Sequence record: NC_049387.1
Direction: 5' to 3' (one strand)
Origin: Peduovirus P24B2
DNA: 32,118 bases
Position 1 is the stretch's first letter; each line of letters begins with the position of its first letter. This document shows positions 14,599 through 32,118 of the stretch, one piece after another. The notes beneath the pieces are model-generated. The model worked only from the letters and a program-made list of their open reading frames with translations. It was not told where the DNA came from and ran no database searches. Position numbers and translations under genes: made by a program.

Positions 14599-15126
14599 AT
14601 GCAGCATTTAAAAAACATTAAGTCAGGTAATCCAAAAACAAAAGAACAATATCAGCTAACAAAGAATTTTGATGTTATCTGGTTATGGTCCGAAGACGGA
14701 AAAAACTGGTATGAGGAAGTAAGTAATTTTCAGCCAGACACAATAAAAATTGTTTACGACGAGAATAATATTATTGTCGCCATCACCAGAGATGCTTCAA
14801 CGCTTCATCCTGAAGGTTTTAGCGTTGTCGAGGTTCCTGATATTACCGCTAACCGACGTGCTGATGACTCAGGTAAATGGATGTTTAAGGATGGTGCCGT
14901 GATTAAGCGGATTTATACGGCAGACGAACAGCAGCAACTGGCAGAATCACAAAAGGCAACTTTACTTTCCGAAGCTGAATCCGTGATTTTGCCGCTGGAG
15001 CGCGCGGTCAGACTGAACATGGCAACAGATGAGGAGCGTAGCCGACTGGATGCATGGGAGCGTTACAGCGTTCTGGTCAGTCGTGTGGATCCTGCAAATC
15101 CTGAATGGCCGGAAATGCCGCAATAA
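14599..15126 (+). CDS. G: tail fiber assembly chaperone
   Basis: 175-aa ORF immediately downstream of H; position and size as P2 gpG; lower GC like the H distal part, consistent with co-transfer of fibre tip and its chaperone. Confidence 0.75.
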
Positions 15127-15347: not shown

Positions 15348-15941
15348 ATGTTTACTAAGCGACGATTAAAAAATATTAACTGGGAGGCAAGTTCAGTGAT
15401 TCTTGCTATGGTTCTCTTTGTTGGAAATATATTTTATACAAATCATCGTGATGATATAAGCATGGAGGCTGAGAGGGACAGTATCAGAACAATGTTTGCA
15501 TATGAAATCGCTAATAACCATCGCGCTCTCACTTTTCTTGATAAAACGAGATATATTGGCTTTGACGAAAATTCGGAGCATTTTGTTGGCGAGCCTTTTG
15601 CCATTAATGTCAAATCATTAGGGGGGCCTCGCTTACAGATTGCATTAAACCAGAGTGATAAAGTGTTTAAATCCTACTTCAGCGAATTAAGTAAGCTTGA
15701 TAAAGAGGATGTTACTCTTCTTATGGACTATTACCATGAGCAAAGCATCCTGCTGGAGCGTGTAAAATCTACGTTACAGAAGATGAAAAGTGGTAATGAT
15801 ATTAAAGTTGATATTGATGGTTACTTATTAGAAGAACACTTCATGAATGAGCTTAATCTTTCTAATATTTTGCTTAAACGCTATAGCCATTTGTTGTCAC
15901 AACACGCCAAAGAACATAAAACAAAAGATTTACATAATTGA
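15348..15941 (+). CDS. hypothetical membrane-anchored protein (moron at the Z/fun position)
   Basis: 197-aa ORF with SD-like AAGGTG 5 nt upstream of ATG; single N-terminal hydrophobic helix (SSVILAMVLFVGNIFY); strongly AT-rich compared with the flanking G and FI genes; no catalytic motif recognised. Confidence 0.6.
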   Translation: MFTKRRLKNINWEASSVILAMVLFVGNIFYTNHRDDISMEAERDSIRTMFAYEIANNHRALTFLDKTRYIGFDENSEHFVGEPFAINVKSLGGPRLQIALNQSDKVFKSYFSELSKLDKEDVTLLMDYYHEQSILLERVKSTLQKMKSGNDIKVDIDGYLLEEHFMNELNLSNILLKRYSHLLSQHAKEHKTKDLHN

Positions 15942-16270: not shown

Positions 16271-17461
16271 ATGAGTGACTATCATCACGGCGTGCAGGTG
16301 CTGGAGATTAACGACGGCACCCGCGTCATTTCCACCGTATCCACCGCCATTGTTGGCATGGTCTGCACGGCCAGCGATGCGGATGCGGAAACCTTCCCCG
16401 TCAATAAACCGGTGCTGATCACCAATGTGCAGAGCGCGATTGCAAAGGCCGGTAAAAAAGGCACGCTGGCGGCATCGTTGCAGGCCATCGCTGACCAGTC
16501 AAAACCGGTCACCGTTGTCGTGCGCGTGGAAGACGGCACCGGCGACGACGAAGAAACGAAACTCGCGCAGACCGTTTCCAATATCATCGGCACCACTGAC
16601 GAAAACGGTCAGTACACCGGACTGAAAGCCCTGATGGGCGCAGAGTCGGTTACCGGCGTTAAACCGCGCATTCTCGGCGTACCGGGACTGGACACCAAAG
16701 AGGTGGCGGTTGCACTGGCATCGGTATGCCAGGAACTGAATGCCTTCGGGTATATCAGCGCATGGGGCTGTAAAACCATTTCCGAGGCAAAAGCCTACCG
16801 TCAGAATTTCAGTCAGCGTGAGCTGATGGTCATCTGGCCGGATTTCCTTGCATGGGATACGGTCACCAGTACCACCGCCACCGCGTATGCCACCGCCCGT
16901 GCGCTGGGGCTGCGTGCCAAAATCGACCAGGAGCAGGGCTGGCATAAAACGCTGTCCAACGTCGGGGTAAACGGTGTTACCGGCATCAGCGCATCTGTAT
17001 TCTGGGATTTGCAGAAGTCTGGCACTGATGCTGACCTGCTGAACGAGGCAGGCGTCACAACGCTGGTTCGCCGCGACGGTTTCCGTTTCTGGGGTAACCG
17101 TACCTGCTCCGATGACCCACTTTTCCTCTTTGAAAGCTACACACGTACCGCGCAGGTACTGGCCGACACGATGGCTGAGGCGCACATGTGGGCTATTGAT
17201 AAGCCCATCACCGCAACGCTGATTCGCGACATCATTGATGGCATCAATGCCAAATTCCGCGAACTGAAAAACAACGGTTATATCGTGGATGGCACATGCT
17301 GGTTCAGTGAAGAAGCCAACGATGCGGAAACCCTCAAGGCCGGAAAACTGTATATCGACTACGACTATACACCGGTGCCTCCTCTCGAAAACCTGACCCT
17401 ACGCCAGCGTATTACTTCAAGATACCTGGCAAGTCTGGTCACCTCGGTTAACAGCAATTAA
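16271..17461 (+). CDS. FI: tail sheath protein
   Basis: 396-aa ORF; P2 gpFI size and N-terminus MSDYHHGVQVLEINDGTRVI. Confidence 0.92.
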   Translation: MSDYHHGVQVLEINDGTRVISTVSTAIVGMVCTASDADAETFPVNKPVLITNVQSAIAKAGKKGTLAASLQAIADQSKPVTVVVRVEDGTGDDEETKLAQTVSNIIGTTDENGQYTGLKALMGAESVTGVKPRILGVPGLDTKEVAVALASVCQELNAFGYISAWGCKTISEAKAYRQNFSQRELMVIWPDFLAWDTVTSTTATAYATARALGLRAKIDQEQGWHKTLSNVGVNGVTGISASVFWDLQKSGTDADLLNEAGVTTLVRRDGFRFWGNRTCSDDPLFLFESYTRTAQVLADTMAEAHMWAIDKPITATLIRDIIDGINAKFRELKNNGYIVDGTCWFSEEANDAETLKAGKLYIDYDYTPVPPLENLTLRQRITSRYLASLVTSVNSN

Positions 17462-26384: not shown

Positions 26385-26656
26385 GTATTCGTATTGAAAT
26401 TGGCGAACGTTATGTCGTTACCAGTGACAGCTTTCAGTTTATTCTCCACGAGAAAAAGAGAGCTGAAAGCGGTAAAAATGCCGGTCAGGAATGGCTGGCG
26501 GTAGTTGGTTATTACCCGAAATTAAGCCAGCTCGTTTCCGGCCTGATGCATCACGATATTCTGACCGGAAGCGCAAAATCTTTTGCTGATTTAAACGCGC
26601 AGGTTGAGCAACTCAGCAAGCGTTGTTCAGAGGCTTTTGGCTCACATGGCCGTTAA
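26381..26656 (+). CDS. hypothetical protein (P2 orf83-like)
   Basis: 91-aa ORF, translationally coupled to neighbours, immediately upstream of A. Confidence 0.6.
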   Translation: MSIRIEIGERYVVTSDSFQFILHEKKRAESGKNAGQEWLAVVGYYPKLSQLVSGLMHHDILTGSAKSFADLNAQVEQLSKRCSEAFGSHGR

Positions 26657-28955
26657 AGCCTCCGGGCATTTTGTCCCTCCGTCAGCATTTGCCGCAGGCA
26701 CCGGTAAGACGTTTACCGGTGCTTATGCATGGAACGCGCCACGCGAGGCCGTCGGGCGCGAAAGACCCCTTACACGTGACGAGATGCGTCAGGTGCAAGG
26801 TGTTTTATCCACGATTAACCGCCTGCCTTACTTTTTGCGCTCGCTGTTTACTTCACGCTATGACTACATCCGGCGCAATAAAAGCCCGGTGCACGGGTTT
26901 TATTTCCTCACATCCACTTTTCAGCGTCGTTTGTGGCCGCGCATTGAGCGTGTGAATCAGCGCCATGAAATGAACACCGACGCGTCGTTGCTGTTTCTGG
27001 CAGAGCGTGAGCACTATGCGCGCCTGCCGGGAATGAATGACAAGGAGCTGAAAAAGTTTGCCGCCCGTATCTCATCGCAGCTTTTCATAATGTATGAGGA
27101 ACTCTGCGATGCCTGGGTGGATGCGCATGGCGAGAAAGAATCGCTGTTTACGGATGAGGCGCAGGCTCACCTGTATGGTCATGTTGCTGGCGCTGCACGT
27201 GCTTTCAATATTTCCCCGCTCTACTGGAAAAAATACCGTAAAGGGCAGATGACCACGAGGCAGGCATATTCTGCCATTGCCCGTCTGTTTAACGATGAGT
27301 GGTGGACTCATCAGCTTAAAGGCCAGCGTATGCGCTGGCATGAGGCGTTACTGATTGCTGTCGGGGAGGTCAATAAAGACCGTTCTCCTTATGCCAGTAA
27401 ACATGCCATTCGTGATGTGCGTGCGCGCCGCCAGGCAAATCTGGAATTTCTTAAATCGTGTGACCTTGAAAACAGGGAAACCGGCGAGCGCATCGACCTT
27501 ATCAGTAAGGTGATGGGCAGTATTTCTAATCCAGAAATTCGCCGGATGGAGCTGATGAACACCATCGCCGGTATTGAGCGTTACGCTGCCGCAGAGGGTG
27601 ATGTGGGGATGTTTATCACGCTGACCGCGCCGTCAAAGTATCACCCGACTCGTCAGGTCAGAAAAGGCGAAAGTAAAACCGTCCAGCTAAATCACGGCTG
27701 GAATGATGAGGCATTTAATCCAAAGGATGCGCAGCGTTATCTCTGCCGTATCTGGAGCCTGATGCGCACGGCATTCAAGGATAATGATTTACAGGCCTAC
27801 GGTTTGCGTGTTGTTGAACCACACCACGACGGAACGCCGCACTGGCATATGATGCTTTTTTGTAATCCACGCCAGCGTAACCAGATTATTGAAATCATGC
27901 GTCGCTACGCGCTCAAAGAGGATGGAGACGAAAGAGGAGCCGCGCGAAACCGTTTTCAGGCAAAACATCTTAACCGGGGCGGTGCTGCGGGGTATATCGC
28001 GAAATACATCTCAAAAAATATCGACGGCTATGCACTGGATGGTCAGCTCGATAATGATACCGGCAGACCGCTGAAAGATACTGCCGCGGCTGTTACCGCA
28101 TGGGCGTCAACGTGGCGCATCCCGCAATTTAAAACGGTTGGTCTGCCGACAATGGGGGCTTACCGTGAACTACGCAAATTGCCTCGCGGCGTCAGCATTG
28201 CTGATGAGTTTGACGAGCGCGTCGAGGCTGCACGCGCCGCTGCAGACAGTGGTGATTTTGCGTTGTATATCAGCGCGCAGGGCGGGGCAAATGTCCCGCG
28301 CGATTGTCAGACTGTCAGGGTCGCCCGTAGCCCGTCGGATGAAGTTAACGAGTACGAGGAAGAAGTCGAGAGAGTGGTCGGCATTTACGCGCCGCATCTC
28401 GGCGCGCGTCATATTCATATCACCAGAACCACGGACTGGCGCATTGTGCCGAAAGTGCCGGTCGTTGAGCCTTTGACTTTAAAAAGCGGCATCGCCGCGC
28501 CTCGGAGTCCTGTCAATAACTGTGGAAAGCTCACCGGTGGTGATACTTCGTCACCGGCTCCCACGCCTTCTGAACACGCCGCAGCAGTGCTTAATCTGGT
28601 AGATGACGGTGTTATTGAATGGAATGACCCGGTGGTCGTGAGGGCGCTCAGAGGCGCATTAAAATACGGCCTGAGAAGACCAAACCGTCAGCAAAGAAAC
28701 GGAATACCGTTAAAACCGCATGAAATAGCACCATCGGCCAGGCTGACCCGGTCAGAACGAATGCAAATTACCCGTATCCGTGTTGACCTTGCTCAGAACG
28801 GTATCAGGCCTCAGCGATGGGAGCTTGAGGCGCTGGCGCGTGGGGCGACCGTAAATTATGACGGGAAACAATTTACGTATCCGGTTGCTGATGAGTGGCC
28901 GGGATTTTTACAAACAGAAATTGTTTTTGGGATTAATAAGTTATCTCTAAGCTAA
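26646..28955 (+). CDS. A: replication initiation protein A (rolling-circle endonuclease)
   Basis: ORF 26604..28955; start placed at MAVKASGHFVPPSAFAAG as in P2 gpA; contains HWHMMLF and YIAKYISK-type segments consistent with HUH-type initiator motifs. Confidence 0.9.
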   Translation: MAVKASGHFVPPSAFAAGTGKTFTGAYAWNAPREAVGRERPLTRDEMRQVQGVLSTINRLPYFLRSLFTSRYDYIRRNKSPVHGFYFLTSTFQRRLWPRIERVNQRHEMNTDASLLFLAEREHYARLPGMNDKELKKFAARISSQLFIMYEELCDAWVDAHGEKESLFTDEAQAHLYGHVAGAARAFNISPLYWKKYRKGQMTTRQAYSAIARLFNDEWWTHQLKGQRMRWHEALLIAVGEVNKDRSPYASKHAIRDVRARRQANLEFLKSCDLENRETGERIDLISKVMGSISNPEIRRMELMNTIAGIERYAAAEGDVGMFITLTAPSKYHPTRQVRKGESKTVQLNHGWNDEAFNPKDAQRYLCRIWSLMRTAFKDNDLQAYGLRVVEPHHDGTPHWHMMLFCNPRQRNQIIEIMRRYALKEDGDERGAARNRFQAKHLNRGGAAGYIAKYISKNIDGYALDGQLDNDTGRPLKDTAAAVTAWASTWRIPQFKTVGLPTMGAYRELRKLPRGVSIADEFDERVEAARAAADSGDFALYISAQGGANVPRDCQTVRVARSPSDEVNEYEEEVERVVGIYAPHLGARHIHITRTTDWRIVPKVPVVEPLTLKSGIAAPRSPVNNCGKLTGGDTSSPAPTPSEHAAAVLNLVDDGVIEWNDPVVVRALRGALKYGLRRPNRQQRNGIPLKPHEIAPSARLTRSERMQITRIRVDLAQNGIRPQRWELEALARGATVNYDGKQFTYPVADEWPGFLQTEIVFGINKLSLS

Positions 28956-29077: not shown

Positions 29078-30125
29078 ATGGCGGTAAAAGTTGTTGATCT
29101 TTTTTGCGGTGCTGGCGGTTTAACGCACGGCTTACATTTGGCCGGATTGGACGTTGTCGCAGGCATTGATTTAGAAGGTGAGTGTCGTGTTGCATACGAA
29201 AGCAATAATGATGCACTTTTTATTGAAAAAGATATATCTCTGGTGACAAAAGATGAAATCGAAAATCTTTTTGAAGGGGCAAGTGTTAAAGTATTGGCCG
29301 GATGTGCACCTTGTCAGCCATTTTCTAAATATACTCAGGGAAAAGATAAAAAAAATGATAAAAAGTGGCCGTTATTATATGAGTTTGAACGTTTAATAAA
29401 AGACACGAAACCAGAAATAGTTACAATGGAAAACGTTCCTGATGTGACAAAACATTCTGTCTATGATGATTTTTATAATACCTTAATAGCATTGGGTTAT
29501 TATGTTTGGGCAAATAAGATTGAATGTGTAGATTTTGAGGTTCCGCAAAACAGAGTGAGGCATGTATTACTCGCATCTAAATTTGCGCCGATTTCTCTGA
29601 TGAAACCACAAACATCGGTAAAGCTGACAGTTAGGGATTGCATTGGTAATTTACCTTCGATTGAAGCGGGACAAGCAGATCCAAAAGACCCTCTCCATAA
29701 GGCGAGTAGATTGAGTGAAATTAATCTCAAACGTATTCTACATTCAAAACCGGGGGGGGACATGGAGGGATTGGCCTGCTGAATTAATCGCTTCATGTCA
29801 TGCCAAGAAAAGTGGGCAGGGATATGCCAGTGTTTATGGTCGTATGTCTTGGGATAAACCGAGTCCAACGATAACTACACTTTGTTATGGTTTTGGTAAT
29901 GGACGTTTTGGTCATCCCGAGCAGCATCGTGCAATCTCACTTAGGGAAGCAGCATTACTTCAAACGTTTCCTGTTACATATTCATTTACCCAACCGGGCG
30001 AGCCGATCAAAATGAAAAATGTCGGGCGTATGATAGGTAATGCTGTTCCTGTAAACTTAGGTAAAGCGATTGGTCTTTCAATAGTACATCATTTGAAAGA
30101 GTTTCACCCCGCCGCTCTTAAATAA
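29078..30125 (+). pseudogene. DNA (cytosine-5) methyltransferase, Dcm-like, split by a frameshift in a G8 tract
   Basis: ORF 29078..29782 carries motif I (FCGAGG), motif IV (GCAPCQPFS), motif VI (ENV) and motif VIII (QNRVRH); ORF 29715..30125, in another frame, carries RMSWDKPSPTIT and motif X (GNAVPV); the frames meet at GGGGGGGG 29752-29759; SD GGAG upstream of the ATG; AT-rich. Confidence 0.8.
29752..29759 (+). repeat. homopolymeric G8 tract at the methyltransferase frameshift site
   Basis: cgggggggga read directly; loss of one G would fuse the two methyltransferase frames into a product of about 348 aa. Confidence 0.9.
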
Positions 30126-30823
30126 GCCTGAGTATCAAGATAAGTTTGTATATTTTCAAGGATGCAGTTGAGATAATGAAAAACTTCATCCTTCATTTCT
30201 GTTAGTGTATCAATAGATGTATCTCTGCCTTTGTTTCTAAATGATTCAGAACCATGAGCAAGGTCGTTTCTGGCCTTTTTTATTGGAAGTAAATTGCAAC
30301 CATTTCGCGTTATTTCTGAATCTGTATCTGCTGAGAAGCCATATTTTTCAGCGACTTCTCTAATTTTTCTAGCATCAACATTTCCAGAAAATAACGGATT
30401 TTTATTTGATTGGATAAGTTTTTTGTGAGCGTTTAGCCACTCTTTAAATATAACTTTTGCAATGTTCCCTTGTGAGAAATCTATTTTCCCATTTGGTGAT
30501 TGTAAACTATGAAATGCTACTCTTGTAAGGTTTTCATTTACAGTGTCTGCACATAATGATTCATTAGACATTAAAACATTATGAATGTCTTCTATTGCAT
30601 TGGAAATGGTTGCTTCAATGAGATTGTACAATATAATAAATGCATTAGCCTTTAAAATATGAGTCATGTCAATATCAATGGGTTGTTGTATAGGCGCATC
30701 GCTTGTATTCTCTTTATAGACTAGAGATGGTTTTTTGTTTATTAGTAACTGAATGAATGAGAAGTATTCATTAATATCTTGCATTCTTTCTTGGAAAAGA
30801 ATTTTACTTGTCATCTCCTCCAT
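30104..30823 (-). CDS. hypothetical protein, putative HEPN-like nuclease
   Basis: 239-aa ORF 10 bp downstream of the DUF262 gene on the same strand; C-terminal KKARNDLAHGSESF fits the R-x4-H(G) HEPN motif; very AT-rich; 3' end overlaps the methyltransferase 3' end by 22 nt (convergent). Confidence 0.5.
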   Translation of the reverse strand: MEEMTSKILFQERMQDINEYFSFIQLLINKKPSLVYKENTSDAPIQQPIDIDMTHILKANAFIILYNLIEATISNAIEDIHNVLMSNESLCADTVNENLTRVAFHSLQSPNGKIDFSQGNIAKVIFKEWLNAHKKLIQSNKNPLFSGNVDARKIREVAEKYGFSADTDSEITRNGCNLLPIKKARNDLAHGSESFRNKGRDTSIDTLTEMKDEVFHYLNCILENIQTYLDTQAYLRAAG

Positions 30824-30833
30824 TTACTTGGCC

Positions 30834-31979
30834 TCACTCCATATTTTCATCTTCATTTTCATCTTCGTCGACAATATTTTCTGGAATGTCTTTCCCAAGC
30901 AACTTGTTTTTTACATATTCAATGCGTGCTTTAACTTTGGGTTTAGAGTTGCTGGCATCTGAACGTGTGTGCGTGATAAACTCTTTCGAGTTGATCCAGT
31001 CATCAATATTTTTAGGAACTAAATTGGGTTCTTCCTCTAGTGCTAATGTTGCACCGACGGCAAGAGCTTCGAAACGAATCCTAGGAACAGTGGTGGCGTT
31101 TTTCACCTTTCTGAAACCATTTGGGAAATGTGTATTAATGAATTGGCACATTTTATGAAATTTTTCCGCCAGCATAGCTGCGTTTTCATCTGTATATTCG
31201 GCATTTTTACGTTTTAAATAGGTTGTAAGAAATTCATCAACGCTTTTTCTGAAATCAAGATATTCTTCAGTGTAGGCAAAGTAGCGTAGTGCCAATTCTG
31301 GATATTCAGAGCGACGTTTTCTTGCATCTCCCAAAGGACAGATGCTATGAAATAGAGGATCTTCGGAAATTTCATTGATAAATGCAAGGAATGGCCCATC
31401 ATGGCTACCTTGCCGTTGTTCCATTGTTGTTAGTTTTTTTCCGCCAGTATTCAGACGGTCAAAAATTTCCCTTCTTGTCTCTTCGTCACAATGTTCTGTA
31501 AGTTCAATCATTCGAATAGTTTTTCTATCAAAACGTAGGCGACGGGGAGTACTGAAATCAGAATATTTAAAACCATTGGCTGTGACTAATTTCTGCAGGC
31601 CTTCAAGAGTTAGTTTGTTATTGGTAAATTGGTGTAGGGTTCTTATTCGTTGGCTACCGTCAACAATTTCAAGTCTACCTTCATTTTCACCTGAACCAAT
31701 ATCGGCAACGAATATGTAAGGTATAGGAAGATTTAAAAGCAGAGATTCAATGAAACGGGATTTTTGCTTGTTGTTCCAGATAAACTCCCTTTGGTAGTCA
31801 GGTATAAAAAGCTCTGCCTCATCTTCTTCAAGACCATTCTGAAATTTGTCCACAATAACACTTATCGGGAACTCACGTATTTCATGGTCAGTGATTTTTT
31901 GCATTTCAACTATGCTTTGATCTAAAAGCTCCTTTTCTTCTTTAGTTTTTGGGGTATGTTCTGCTTTTTTTCTCGCCAT
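30834..31979 (-). CDS. DUF262 (ParB/sulfiredoxin-like, GmrSD N-terminal-type) domain protein
   Basis: 381-aa ORF with IPDYQREFIW and EIVDGSQRIRTL, matching the DUF262 hallmarks ([IL]PxFQRxYxW and DGQQR); no HNH/DUF1524-like C-terminal motif seen; acidic C-terminal tail DEDENEDENME; SD AGGA upstream; AT-rich. Confidence 0.7.
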   Translation of the reverse strand: MARKKAEHTPKTKEEKELLDQSIVEMQKITDHEIREFPISVIVDKFQNGLEEDEAELFIPDYQREFIWNNKQKSRFIESLLLNLPIPYIFVADIGSGENEGRLEIVDGSQRIRTLHQFTNNKLTLEGLQKLVTANGFKYSDFSTPRRLRFDRKTIRMIELTEHCDEETRREIFDRLNTGGKKLTTMEQRQGSHDGPFLAFINEISEDPLFHSICPLGDARKRRSEYPELALRYFAYTEEYLDFRKSVDEFLTTYLKRKNAEYTDENAAMLAEKFHKMCQFINTHFPNGFRKVKNATTVPRIRFEALAVGATLALEEEPNLVPKNIDDWINSKEFITHTRSDASNSKPKVKARIEYVKNKLLGKDIPENIVDEDENEDENME

Positions 31980-32118
31980 GAGCTTATTATCCTACTATGC
32001 GTGTGATTGCATTAAATTGCATGTTAAACAAAAGCATAATCTATATCAGTCAATCAGCCAGTGGCAAGGTGTTGTGATTACAATGCAACTGCATTAGAAC
32101 CGACTCATGAAGCGGGCG

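Follow-up and report, generated by a model that had tools for sequence, protein, structure and literature searches.

Peduovirus P24B2 (NC_049387.1; 32,118 nucleotides, the whole of which is called the window here) carries a cassette of three genes that encode a C5 cytosine DNA methyltransferase, a ParB-like DUF262 protein and a HEPN protein. Across bacterial phyla, and in prophages too, the methyltransferase is inherited along with the DUF262/ParBDB protein and the MAE_28990-type HEPN protein, and the DUF262-HEPN operon fills a slot adjacent to the methyltransferase that is held elsewhere by predicted restriction modules. We give even odds, a probability of roughly 0.5, to the reading that the cassette is a defence system resembling restriction-modification (R-M) and carried as cargo between gpA and the portal gene of P2. 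In such a system, the methylase would mark self DNA, the DUF262/ParBDB protein would read the modification, and the HEPN protein would be a ribonuclease (RNase) effector. The initial annotation of this region described a two-gene unit, the DUF262 and HEPN genes, and overlooked the third gene, which is conserved with the pair across phyla.

The three genes and their inheritance

The P2 hotspot position and the low GC content that the initial annotation had noted are both confirmed. In the four Escherichia coli copies whose flanks were inspected (L001-L004), the P2 replication endonuclease and the portal gene bracket the cassette (4/4), which is the tin/old hotspot. The GC content is 0.33-0.39 over the DUF262 and HEPN genes, compared to 0.52-0.60 in most of the window. 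Three E. coli chromosomes contain a near-identical region (at least 99.9% identity) and four contain a version that is ~75% identical, together 7 of 5,426 complete genomes, and in all of the E. coli copies a C5 cytosine methyltransferase is annotated beside the DUF262-HEPN pair. Coordinates are collected in Table 1.

Table 1. Features of the cassette and its surroundings. Positions are those of the window unless a locus is named.
Feature	Position	Strand	Basis or remark
P2 gpA-like replication endonuclease, left edge of the cargo hotspot	26604..28955	+	ORF list; RefSeq 'replication endonuclease' directly upstream in L001-L004
C5 cytosine DNA methyltransferase gene	29078..30125	+	Split here into 29078..29782 and 29715..30125
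Poly-G tract (G8) in the methyltransferase gene	29752..29759	+	One extra G relative to L001 by alignment
3' overlap, 22 bp, of the convergent methyltransferase and HEPN genes	30104..30125	.	ORF coordinates
HEPN protein, 239 aa, MAE_28990 family, predicted RNase effector	30104..30823	-	
Rx4H catalytic motif, R185-N-D-L-A-H190	30254..30271	-	Translation
Intergenic spacer, 10 nt, with GAGG ribosome-binding site	30824..30833	-	Sequence read
ParB-like DUF262 protein, 381 aa, with helical C-terminal domain (NsnA-type 'ParBDB') and acidic tail	30834..31979	-	
DGSQR, the NTP-binding motif of DUF262 (DGQQR in GmrSD)	31647..31661	-	Translation; D107, G108, S109, Q110 and R111 invariant
QRxxxW motif of DUF262, here QREFIW	31776..31793	-	Translation; Q63, R64 and W68 invariant
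Non-coding region upstream of the DUF262-HEPN operon	31980..32118	-	In L001 the region runs on to the portal gene
Weak sigma-70-like site in the upstream region	32067..32038	-	9/12 match by promoter scan
Example loci with alternative methyltransferase partners (among L195-L246)	L195 5239..7530, L207 5016..5411, L245 5061..7840		

The open reading frames (ORFs) of 381 and 239 amino acids (aa) are present as the initial annotation described them, and the motifs QREFIW, DGSQR and RNDLAH translate as it claimed. Its view that the two genes form a same-strand operon with a 10-nt gap also holds: the gap contains a ribosome-binding site, and from their sequence we take the two genes to be one operon. 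In related loci, the DUF262 and HEPN genes mostly overlap by ~4 bp or are separated by a few nt. A scan of the upstream region for promoters and terminators gave no more sites than expected from shuffled sequence.

The DUF262/ParB-like identity of the 381-aa protein is borne out by profile search (GmrSD_N/DUF262, PF03235; E=4.7e-28, above the Pfam gathering cut-off). Its nucleoside triphosphatase (NTPase) motifs are all kept: QRxxxW, which is named in the analysis of Menshen (NAR 2025, gkaf357), DGSQR and FDRLNxGG. In structure models, the closest matches of the protein are BrxU and SspE. The best PADLOC match is NsnA (E=4.9e-55, model positions 41-377 of 385), and PD-T4-2_A (PDLC04027) ranks below it (E=9.2e-35, model positions 55-357 of 363). 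The PADLOC models for SspE and HEC-05/06 match only the N-terminal ~30-70 residues, and the REase_II model PDLC03418 matches the DUF262 domain weakly (E=8.9e-7). As the initial annotation had stated, there is no DUF1524/HNH nuclease domain in the protein by Pfam (at E<=1) or by PADLOC. The C-terminal domain, which includes an invariant H337/D341/N344 cluster, matched no nuclease family, and PADLOC aligns it with the DNA-binding ParBDB of NsnA. The protein is predicted to be an NTP-dependent DNA sensor. It ends in the acidic tail DEDENEDENME (30834..30866), and most aligned homologs have a tail that is likewise acidic and otherwise variable. This tail could be a partner-docking element or an autoinhibitory, DNA-mimicking one.

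The 239-aa protein had been called HEPN-like from its C-terminal Rx4H arrangement, said to be its only recognisable feature. The HEPN assignment stands but the qualification does not: HEPN_MAE_28990 (PF18737) matches the full length of the protein (E=7.6e-18, 65.9 bits, cut-off 26.8), and HEPN_RiboL-PSP (PF18735) matches it as well (E=7.6e-7). Residues R185, N186, L188, A189, H190 and G191 (RNxLAHG) are invariant in 26 HEPN homologs, down to 38% identity. Structure models support the HEPN fold, and the top structural matches include HepT toxins. No PADLOC model, PD-T4-2_B included, matches the protein at E<=1. The HEPN protein is the sole recognisable nuclease of the cassette, and the most plausible reading of this subunit is that of an effector acting in trans.

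The methyltransferase gene is split into two ORFs in the window, and DNA_methylase (PF00145) matches both (Pfam E=1.2e-37 for the first and 4.1e-13 for the second). The best PADLOC models are DrmMII and MTase_II, with DrmMII giving E=6.7e-54 and 4.2e-32 for the two halves. In near-identical copies the gene is intact and encodes 348 aa; RefSeq lists the protein as WP_001533788 in L001 and L004 and as 'frameshifted' in L003. The frameshift in the window is caused by a single extra G in a homopolymer. Among the six near-identical copies (the window, L001, L003, L004, L088 and L089), the tract is G7 in four, which include those of E. coli 181.1 and 2023CK-01509, G6 in one (2015C-4136CT1) and G8 in one, the window. 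G7 is in frame and the G6 copy is annotated by RefSeq as 'frameshifted', so both -1 and +1 alleles exist. Either slipped-strand phase variation of the methylase or errors in homopolymer assembly could account for this variation. The window copy, with its gene out of frame, is therefore either methylase-OFF or the product of a sequencing or mutational error. The G run stems from conserved P-G-G codons and is interrupted by synonymous codons in most methyltransferase orthologs.

The target-recognition region of the methyltransferase orthologs is conserved as strongly as their catalytic motifs, which suggests that they share one specificity. Solved structures did not help to assign it: the matches were generic only (the C-terminal region of DNMT1, M.HaeIII and M.HhaI). 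For the C-terminal third of the protein (residues 245-335; intact copy L001 6079..7125), the top solved structure is that of eukaryotic DNMT1 (E ~4e-21), which ranks ahead of the bacterial M.HaeIII and M.HhaI.

The cassette is present in at least 235 species-representative genomes and at least 116 viral contigs. We analysed 80 genome loci, obtained by searching one genome of each species with aligned DUF262 homologs, and 80 loci on IMG/VR contigs. The HEPN gene is directly downstream of the DUF262 gene in 78 of the 80 genome loci (the other two are on truncated contigs) and in 80 of 80 IMG/VR loci. An orthologous methyltransferase is adjacent in 64 of the 71 genome loci and 74 of the 75 viral loci that could be assessed; it is downstream and convergent in 59 genome loci and 72 viral loci, mostly with overlapping 3' ends. 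The three proteins co-diverge (Mantel r=0.87-0.92, p=0.001), and their mean pairwise identities are 55% (DUF262), 57% (methyltransferase) and 36.5% (HEPN). By ORF-length criteria, 138 of 164 loci have the complete set of three intact genes; tblastn is unreliable for the divergent HEPN protein. The hosts of the 80 genome loci include Gamma-, Beta-, Alpha-, Delta- and Epsilonproteobacteria, many Cyanobacteria, Cytophagales, Pirellulaceae and Lentisphaerae, and Microcystis aeruginosa, the source of the MAE_28990 prototype, is among the 160 related loci. The full triad is also found in the Moraxella catarrhalis prophages Mcat24-32.

A slot shared with predicted restriction modules

Orthologs of the methyltransferase also occur with other partners. 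We searched viral contigs with the methyltransferase as seed and classified the best 80 orthologs: 57 are in complete triads, 2 are truncated and 21 lack the DUF262-HEPN pair. In 16 of these 21 loci, the same convergent slot contains a protein of 660-780 aa with a GHKL ATPase domain and an SduA_C-like region, which PADLOC scores as REase_II, a Type II restriction enzyme (E ~1e-94 to 1e-96). A gene for a Vsr mismatch endonuclease is present in some of the GHKL-type loci, and one of the 21 (L245) has the DISARM DrmD/DrmA helicase instead. The methyltransferases of the GHKL and DUF262-HEPN contexts are interleaved, with amino-acid identities of 92% and 87% across contexts. In the target-recognition region, identity is as high for pairs from different contexts as for pairs from the same one.

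Comparison of L195 and L208 gives the clearest view of the exchange. The left flank is common to both, the methyltransferase genes are 83.5% identical in DNA sequence and the right flanks 86.5%. The middle module is the GHKL enzyme in one and HEPN plus DUF262 in the other. The difference between these two loci is a cassette swap. The components also differ in how often they are orphaned: 21 of 78 loci have the methyltransferase but no pair, compared to 1 of 75 viral loci and 5 of 71 genome loci that have the pair but no methyltransferase, an asymmetry like that of R-M systems. The shared slot, the cassette swap and the orphan asymmetry lead us to view the DUF262-HEPN pair as the counterpart of the restriction arm in an R-M-like system.

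The likeness to the systems that use this slot is in the methyltransferase and its position, not in the partner. The GHKL-ATPase Type II R-M systems and DISARM class 2 have an orthologous methyltransferase (55-92% identity, same target-recognition region) and a partner in the same convergent position, but their partner is a GHKL/nuclease enzyme or a DISARM helicase set and here it is DUF262-HEPN. Membership of DISARM class 2 was rejected: the cassette has no Drm helicase or DUF1998 gene, despite a methyltransferase whose best model is DrmMII. Set against classical Type II R-M, the cassette has a methyltransferase and its pair occupies the slot of a restriction enzyme; the pair has no recognisable DNase domain, and a broken methyltransferase beside an intact pair does occur. 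A different neighbourhood is found in Alcanivorax sp. S6407 (L024 1688..11824), one of five genome loci in which the pair has no C5 methylase next to it. There the pair seems to form part of another methylase-based system, as it lies between a 1,376-aa MmeI/Eco57I-type N6 methyltransferase and a helicase-domain protein of 1,328 aa.

Relation to known systems and possible mechanisms

The pair was not recognised in the initial annotation as any named, characterised system, and that claim fails on two counts: PD-T4-2 (Vassallo et al. 2022) is a validated DUF262 and HEPN system, and the arrangement of the cassette appears in Anantharaman et al. 2013. The latter (Biol Direct 8:15, Table 1) is a computational study that lists a MAE_28990-type operon of 'ParB nuclease + HEPN + DNA methylase'. 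That operon has the same HEPN family (PF18737 above the gathering score), Rx4H, a ParB-like DUF262 partner and a methylase, as here. All three defining features (HEPN, ParB-like DUF262 and linked methylase) are found in the cassette, which therefore belongs to this kind. The 2013 entry is a single table row with a generic PrrC-like proposal, no experiments and no system name, and it includes no analysis of the methylase or of module swaps; the copy described here is prophage-borne in E. coli and has its methylase out of frame. In full-text searches, MAE_28990 included, we found no experimental study of a DUF262, HEPN and methyltransferase triad. Rousset 2022 does not mention DUF262, and the PADLOC models miss the cassette as a system. 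The kind was thus already noted in 2013 and has been partly validated through PD-T4-2 (2022).

PD-T4-2 is the closest system with a known phenotype. It was described in E. coli ECOR65 as 'DUF262, HEPN', and its activity against T4 was validated, by deletion in the native strain as well (Vassallo et al. 2022, Nat Microbiol). Like the pair in the window, PD-T4-2 is a two-gene operon, DUF262 then HEPN, from the same mobile gene pool of E. coli, and PD-T4-2B matches PF18735 and PF18737 in the authors' HHpred results, the two Pfam families that also match the HEPN protein of the window. In contrast to the cassette, with its 239-aa HEPN protein and linked methyltransferase, PD-T4-2 is 1,540 bp long, its HEPN protein is ~165 aa, and no methylase was part of the clone. 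The comparison is based on hidden Markov models and the authors' HHpred table, not on direct sequence alignment. Searches of phage-collection proteins with the DUF262 and HEPN proteins of the window and with a Klebsiella-phage homolog gave related pairs, none of which PADLOC recognised as PD-T4-2_B. By the available models, PD-T4-2 is a sister architecture and not the same family. A preprint on DARNA mentions PD-T4-2, but DARNA is PD-T7-3 and has a different architecture.

Several other systems have parts in common with the cassette. Menshen (NsnABC; Millman 2022; NAR 2025, gkaf357) is a proposed DNA sensor coupled to an RNase effector. The C-terminal ParBDB of NsnA, the proposed sensor, has its homologs in the DNA-binding middle domains of SspE and GmrSD (gkaf357), and the ParB-DUF262 plus ParBDB architecture of NsnA is common to the DUF262 protein of the window. 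The cassette is not a Menshen system: it has neither the NsnB ABC ATPase nor NsnC (inPIN + BECR), and its sole downstream gene is HEPN. The N-terminal DUF262 fold and motifs (QRxxxW, and DGxQR as DGSQR) are also those of GmrSD, BrxU and SspE, and SspE is a precedent for a DUF262 module that reads a self-applied DNA modification. In the cassette, however, the effector is a separate HEPN protein, and the linked enzyme for DNA modification is a C5 methyltransferase, not part of a phosphorothioation system; the absence of the DUF1524 (His-Me/HNH) domain led us to reject membership of this group. Dazbog was rejected as well, as no Dzb model (DzbA/DzbB) is among the PADLOC matches of the DUF262 or HEPN protein. 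PrrC-EcoprrI is another case of a HEPN RNase that is tied genetically to self/non-self machinery based on DNA methylation. PrrC, however, is an ABC-ATPase-HEPN fusion guarded by a complete HsdMSR, and a separate restriction endonuclease is absent from the cassette.

We postulate that the methyltransferase would place 5-methylcytosine on the resident DNA, at a single conserved target sequence. Much like the N-terminal and middle domains of SspE, BrxU and NsnA, the DUF262/ParBDB protein would sense DNA in an NTP-dependent manner and would read the presence of this mark. DNA in the wrong modification state would cause the DUF262 protein to activate or release its HEPN partner, most likely as a putative complex, and the invariant Rx4H site would then cleave RNA (tRNA or mRNA) and stop translation and phage growth. 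The trigger could be unmethylated DNA, perceived as non-self, or it could involve an SspE-style need for the self mark. The linked methyltransferase is what shifts the likely logic from the targeting of modified DNA, as in GmrSD, to that of an R-M-like system. A role in defence is favoured by the position in the P2 hotspot and by the protection from T4 that the related PD-T4-2 pair provides.

Several points weigh against this R-M-like reading. The methyltransferase is out of frame in the window and in one of the five other near-identical copies, and the DUF262 and HEPN proteins are unchanged. In Neisseria weixii the methyltransferase is frameshifted and the pair is intact, and at five genome loci an intact pair stands without a C5 methyltransferase beside it. 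Aphanizomenon flos-aquae (L064) cleanly lacks a methyltransferase segment of ~1.1 kb that is present in Dolichospermum circinale (L060); the two are 97% identical in the DUF262 protein and 91% in HEPN, and both ORFs are intact in the methylase-less L064. Because the pair can remain intact where the methylase is broken or absent, a strictly lethal 'R without M' relationship is unsupported, unless another methylase with this specificity is active in trans. The divergence of the DUF262 C-terminal domain at loci with a different methylase or none gives residuals of only ~-1.6 standard deviations, which speaks neither for nor against co-variation with the methylase type. The binding of the DUF262 and HEPN proteins to each other, most likely as we consider it, is putative. 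To our knowledge, no R-M system with an RNase effector has been demonstrated. Lastly, PD-T4-2 works from a clone without a methylase (Vassallo 2022).

Anantharaman et al. 2013 provide the basis for a different division of labour, in which the DUF262 protein would be the DNA-cutting partner of the methylase and HEPN a PrrC-like second line that is restrained by the R-M components and set free once a phage disables them. The 2013 paper names the partner 'ParB nuclease' and proposes PrrC-like control, and the pair does replace a predicted restriction enzyme in the same slot. The weak match of the DUF262 domain to REase_II and the invariant H337/D341/N344 cluster would fit a DNA-cutting role. Nonetheless, we think such a two-layer arrangement unlikely. 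As reviewed, it is DUF1524, absent here, that cuts or nicks DNA in GmrSD, BrxU and SspE, and their DUF262 domain is a module that binds and hydrolyses NTP and, in SspE, senses DNA modification. Moreover, the C-terminal domain aligns with the ParBDB of NsnA and has no match to a nuclease family.

The same observations that weigh against the R-M-like reading raise the question of whether the methyltransferase belongs to the system. The pair might be a stand-alone sensor-effector like PD-T4-2 that, as Type IV systems or Dazbog do, detects the DNA of phages or a modification specific to them, and the methyltransferase an independent passenger that, for example, shields the DNA of the element from host restriction. 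DUF262 and HEPN pairs without a methylase do exist, in PD-T4-2 and in a P2-family Klebsiella phage, modified DNA is the target of the DUF262 enzymes of the GmrSD family, and the pair stays intact where the methyltransferase is broken or absent. We give this account little credence, as adjacency of 90-99%, convergent 3' overlap, co-divergence (r=0.92) and a slot otherwise used by restriction modules are not expected of a passenger gene. It is highly improbable that the pair is a toxin-antitoxin or addiction module that stabilises the prophage rather than defending against phage, with HEPN as toxin and DUF262 as antitoxin or regulator: many HEPN proteins are toxins of two-gene modules (HEPN-MNT), HepT is among the top structural matches and the two genes are tightly coupled for translation, but DUF262 is the more conserved partner (55% versus 36.5% for HEPN) and keeps all of its NTPase motifs, unlike typical antitoxins, and the related PD-T4-2 defends its native strain against phage.

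Related cargo and implications

Other cargo genes and DUF262 pairs were seen in the window and in related phages. In the window, a patch of 35% GC at the second P2 cargo hotspot (the Z/fun position) contains a 197-aa ORF (15348..15941, +), a cargo gene with no Pfam or PADLOC match. Its neighbours are a tail-fibre assembly gene (14599..15126, Caudo_TAP) and a 396-aa ORF (16271..17461) that we take, by position only, to be the sheath gene. Klebsiella phage ST16-OXA48phi5.4 (Peduoviridae; L086 3426..5329) has a methylase-less pair, a 407-aa DUF262 protein (PADLOC: NsnA 1.5e-61, PD-T4-2_A 1.6e-34) and a 220-aa RiboL-PSP-HEPN protein, between tail-fibre and tail genes: a PD-T4-2-like pair in the other P2 hotspot. 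In Escherichia phage vB_EcoM-689R6 (L087 3423..5134), a gene for a 350-aa DUF262 protein followed by one for a 216-aa protein with no Pfam or PADLOC match is located right after the integrase gene and beside icd. This may be another pair of DUF262 and a candidate effector.

What is new here is the comparative evidence that places DUF262-HEPN in the slot of a restriction module, beside a methylase of apparently single specificity. PD-T4-2, Menshen and Dazbog are validated defences with DUF262-only proteins, and the cassette is a tractable E. coli/P2 version in which to ask what a sensor of this type reads and how it controls an RNase. Its dedicated methyltransferase, which has natural ON and OFF forms (G7 versus G6 or G8) and is elsewhere paired with conventional restriction modules, provides a handle on the mechanism.

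In a tentative and more specific proposal, which we hold at somewhat below even odds, the cassette is an R-M system whose second arm does not cut DNA: a ParB-like NTPase would read 5-methylcytosine as the mark of self, and foreign DNA would switch on a HEPN RNase. If this is true, the distinction of self from non-self by an epigenetic mark would be linked to RNA cleavage and an arrest of translation. Phages whose hypermodified DNA is resistant to restriction would remain within reach of such a design, which could also explain how the related PD-T4-2 blocks T4.

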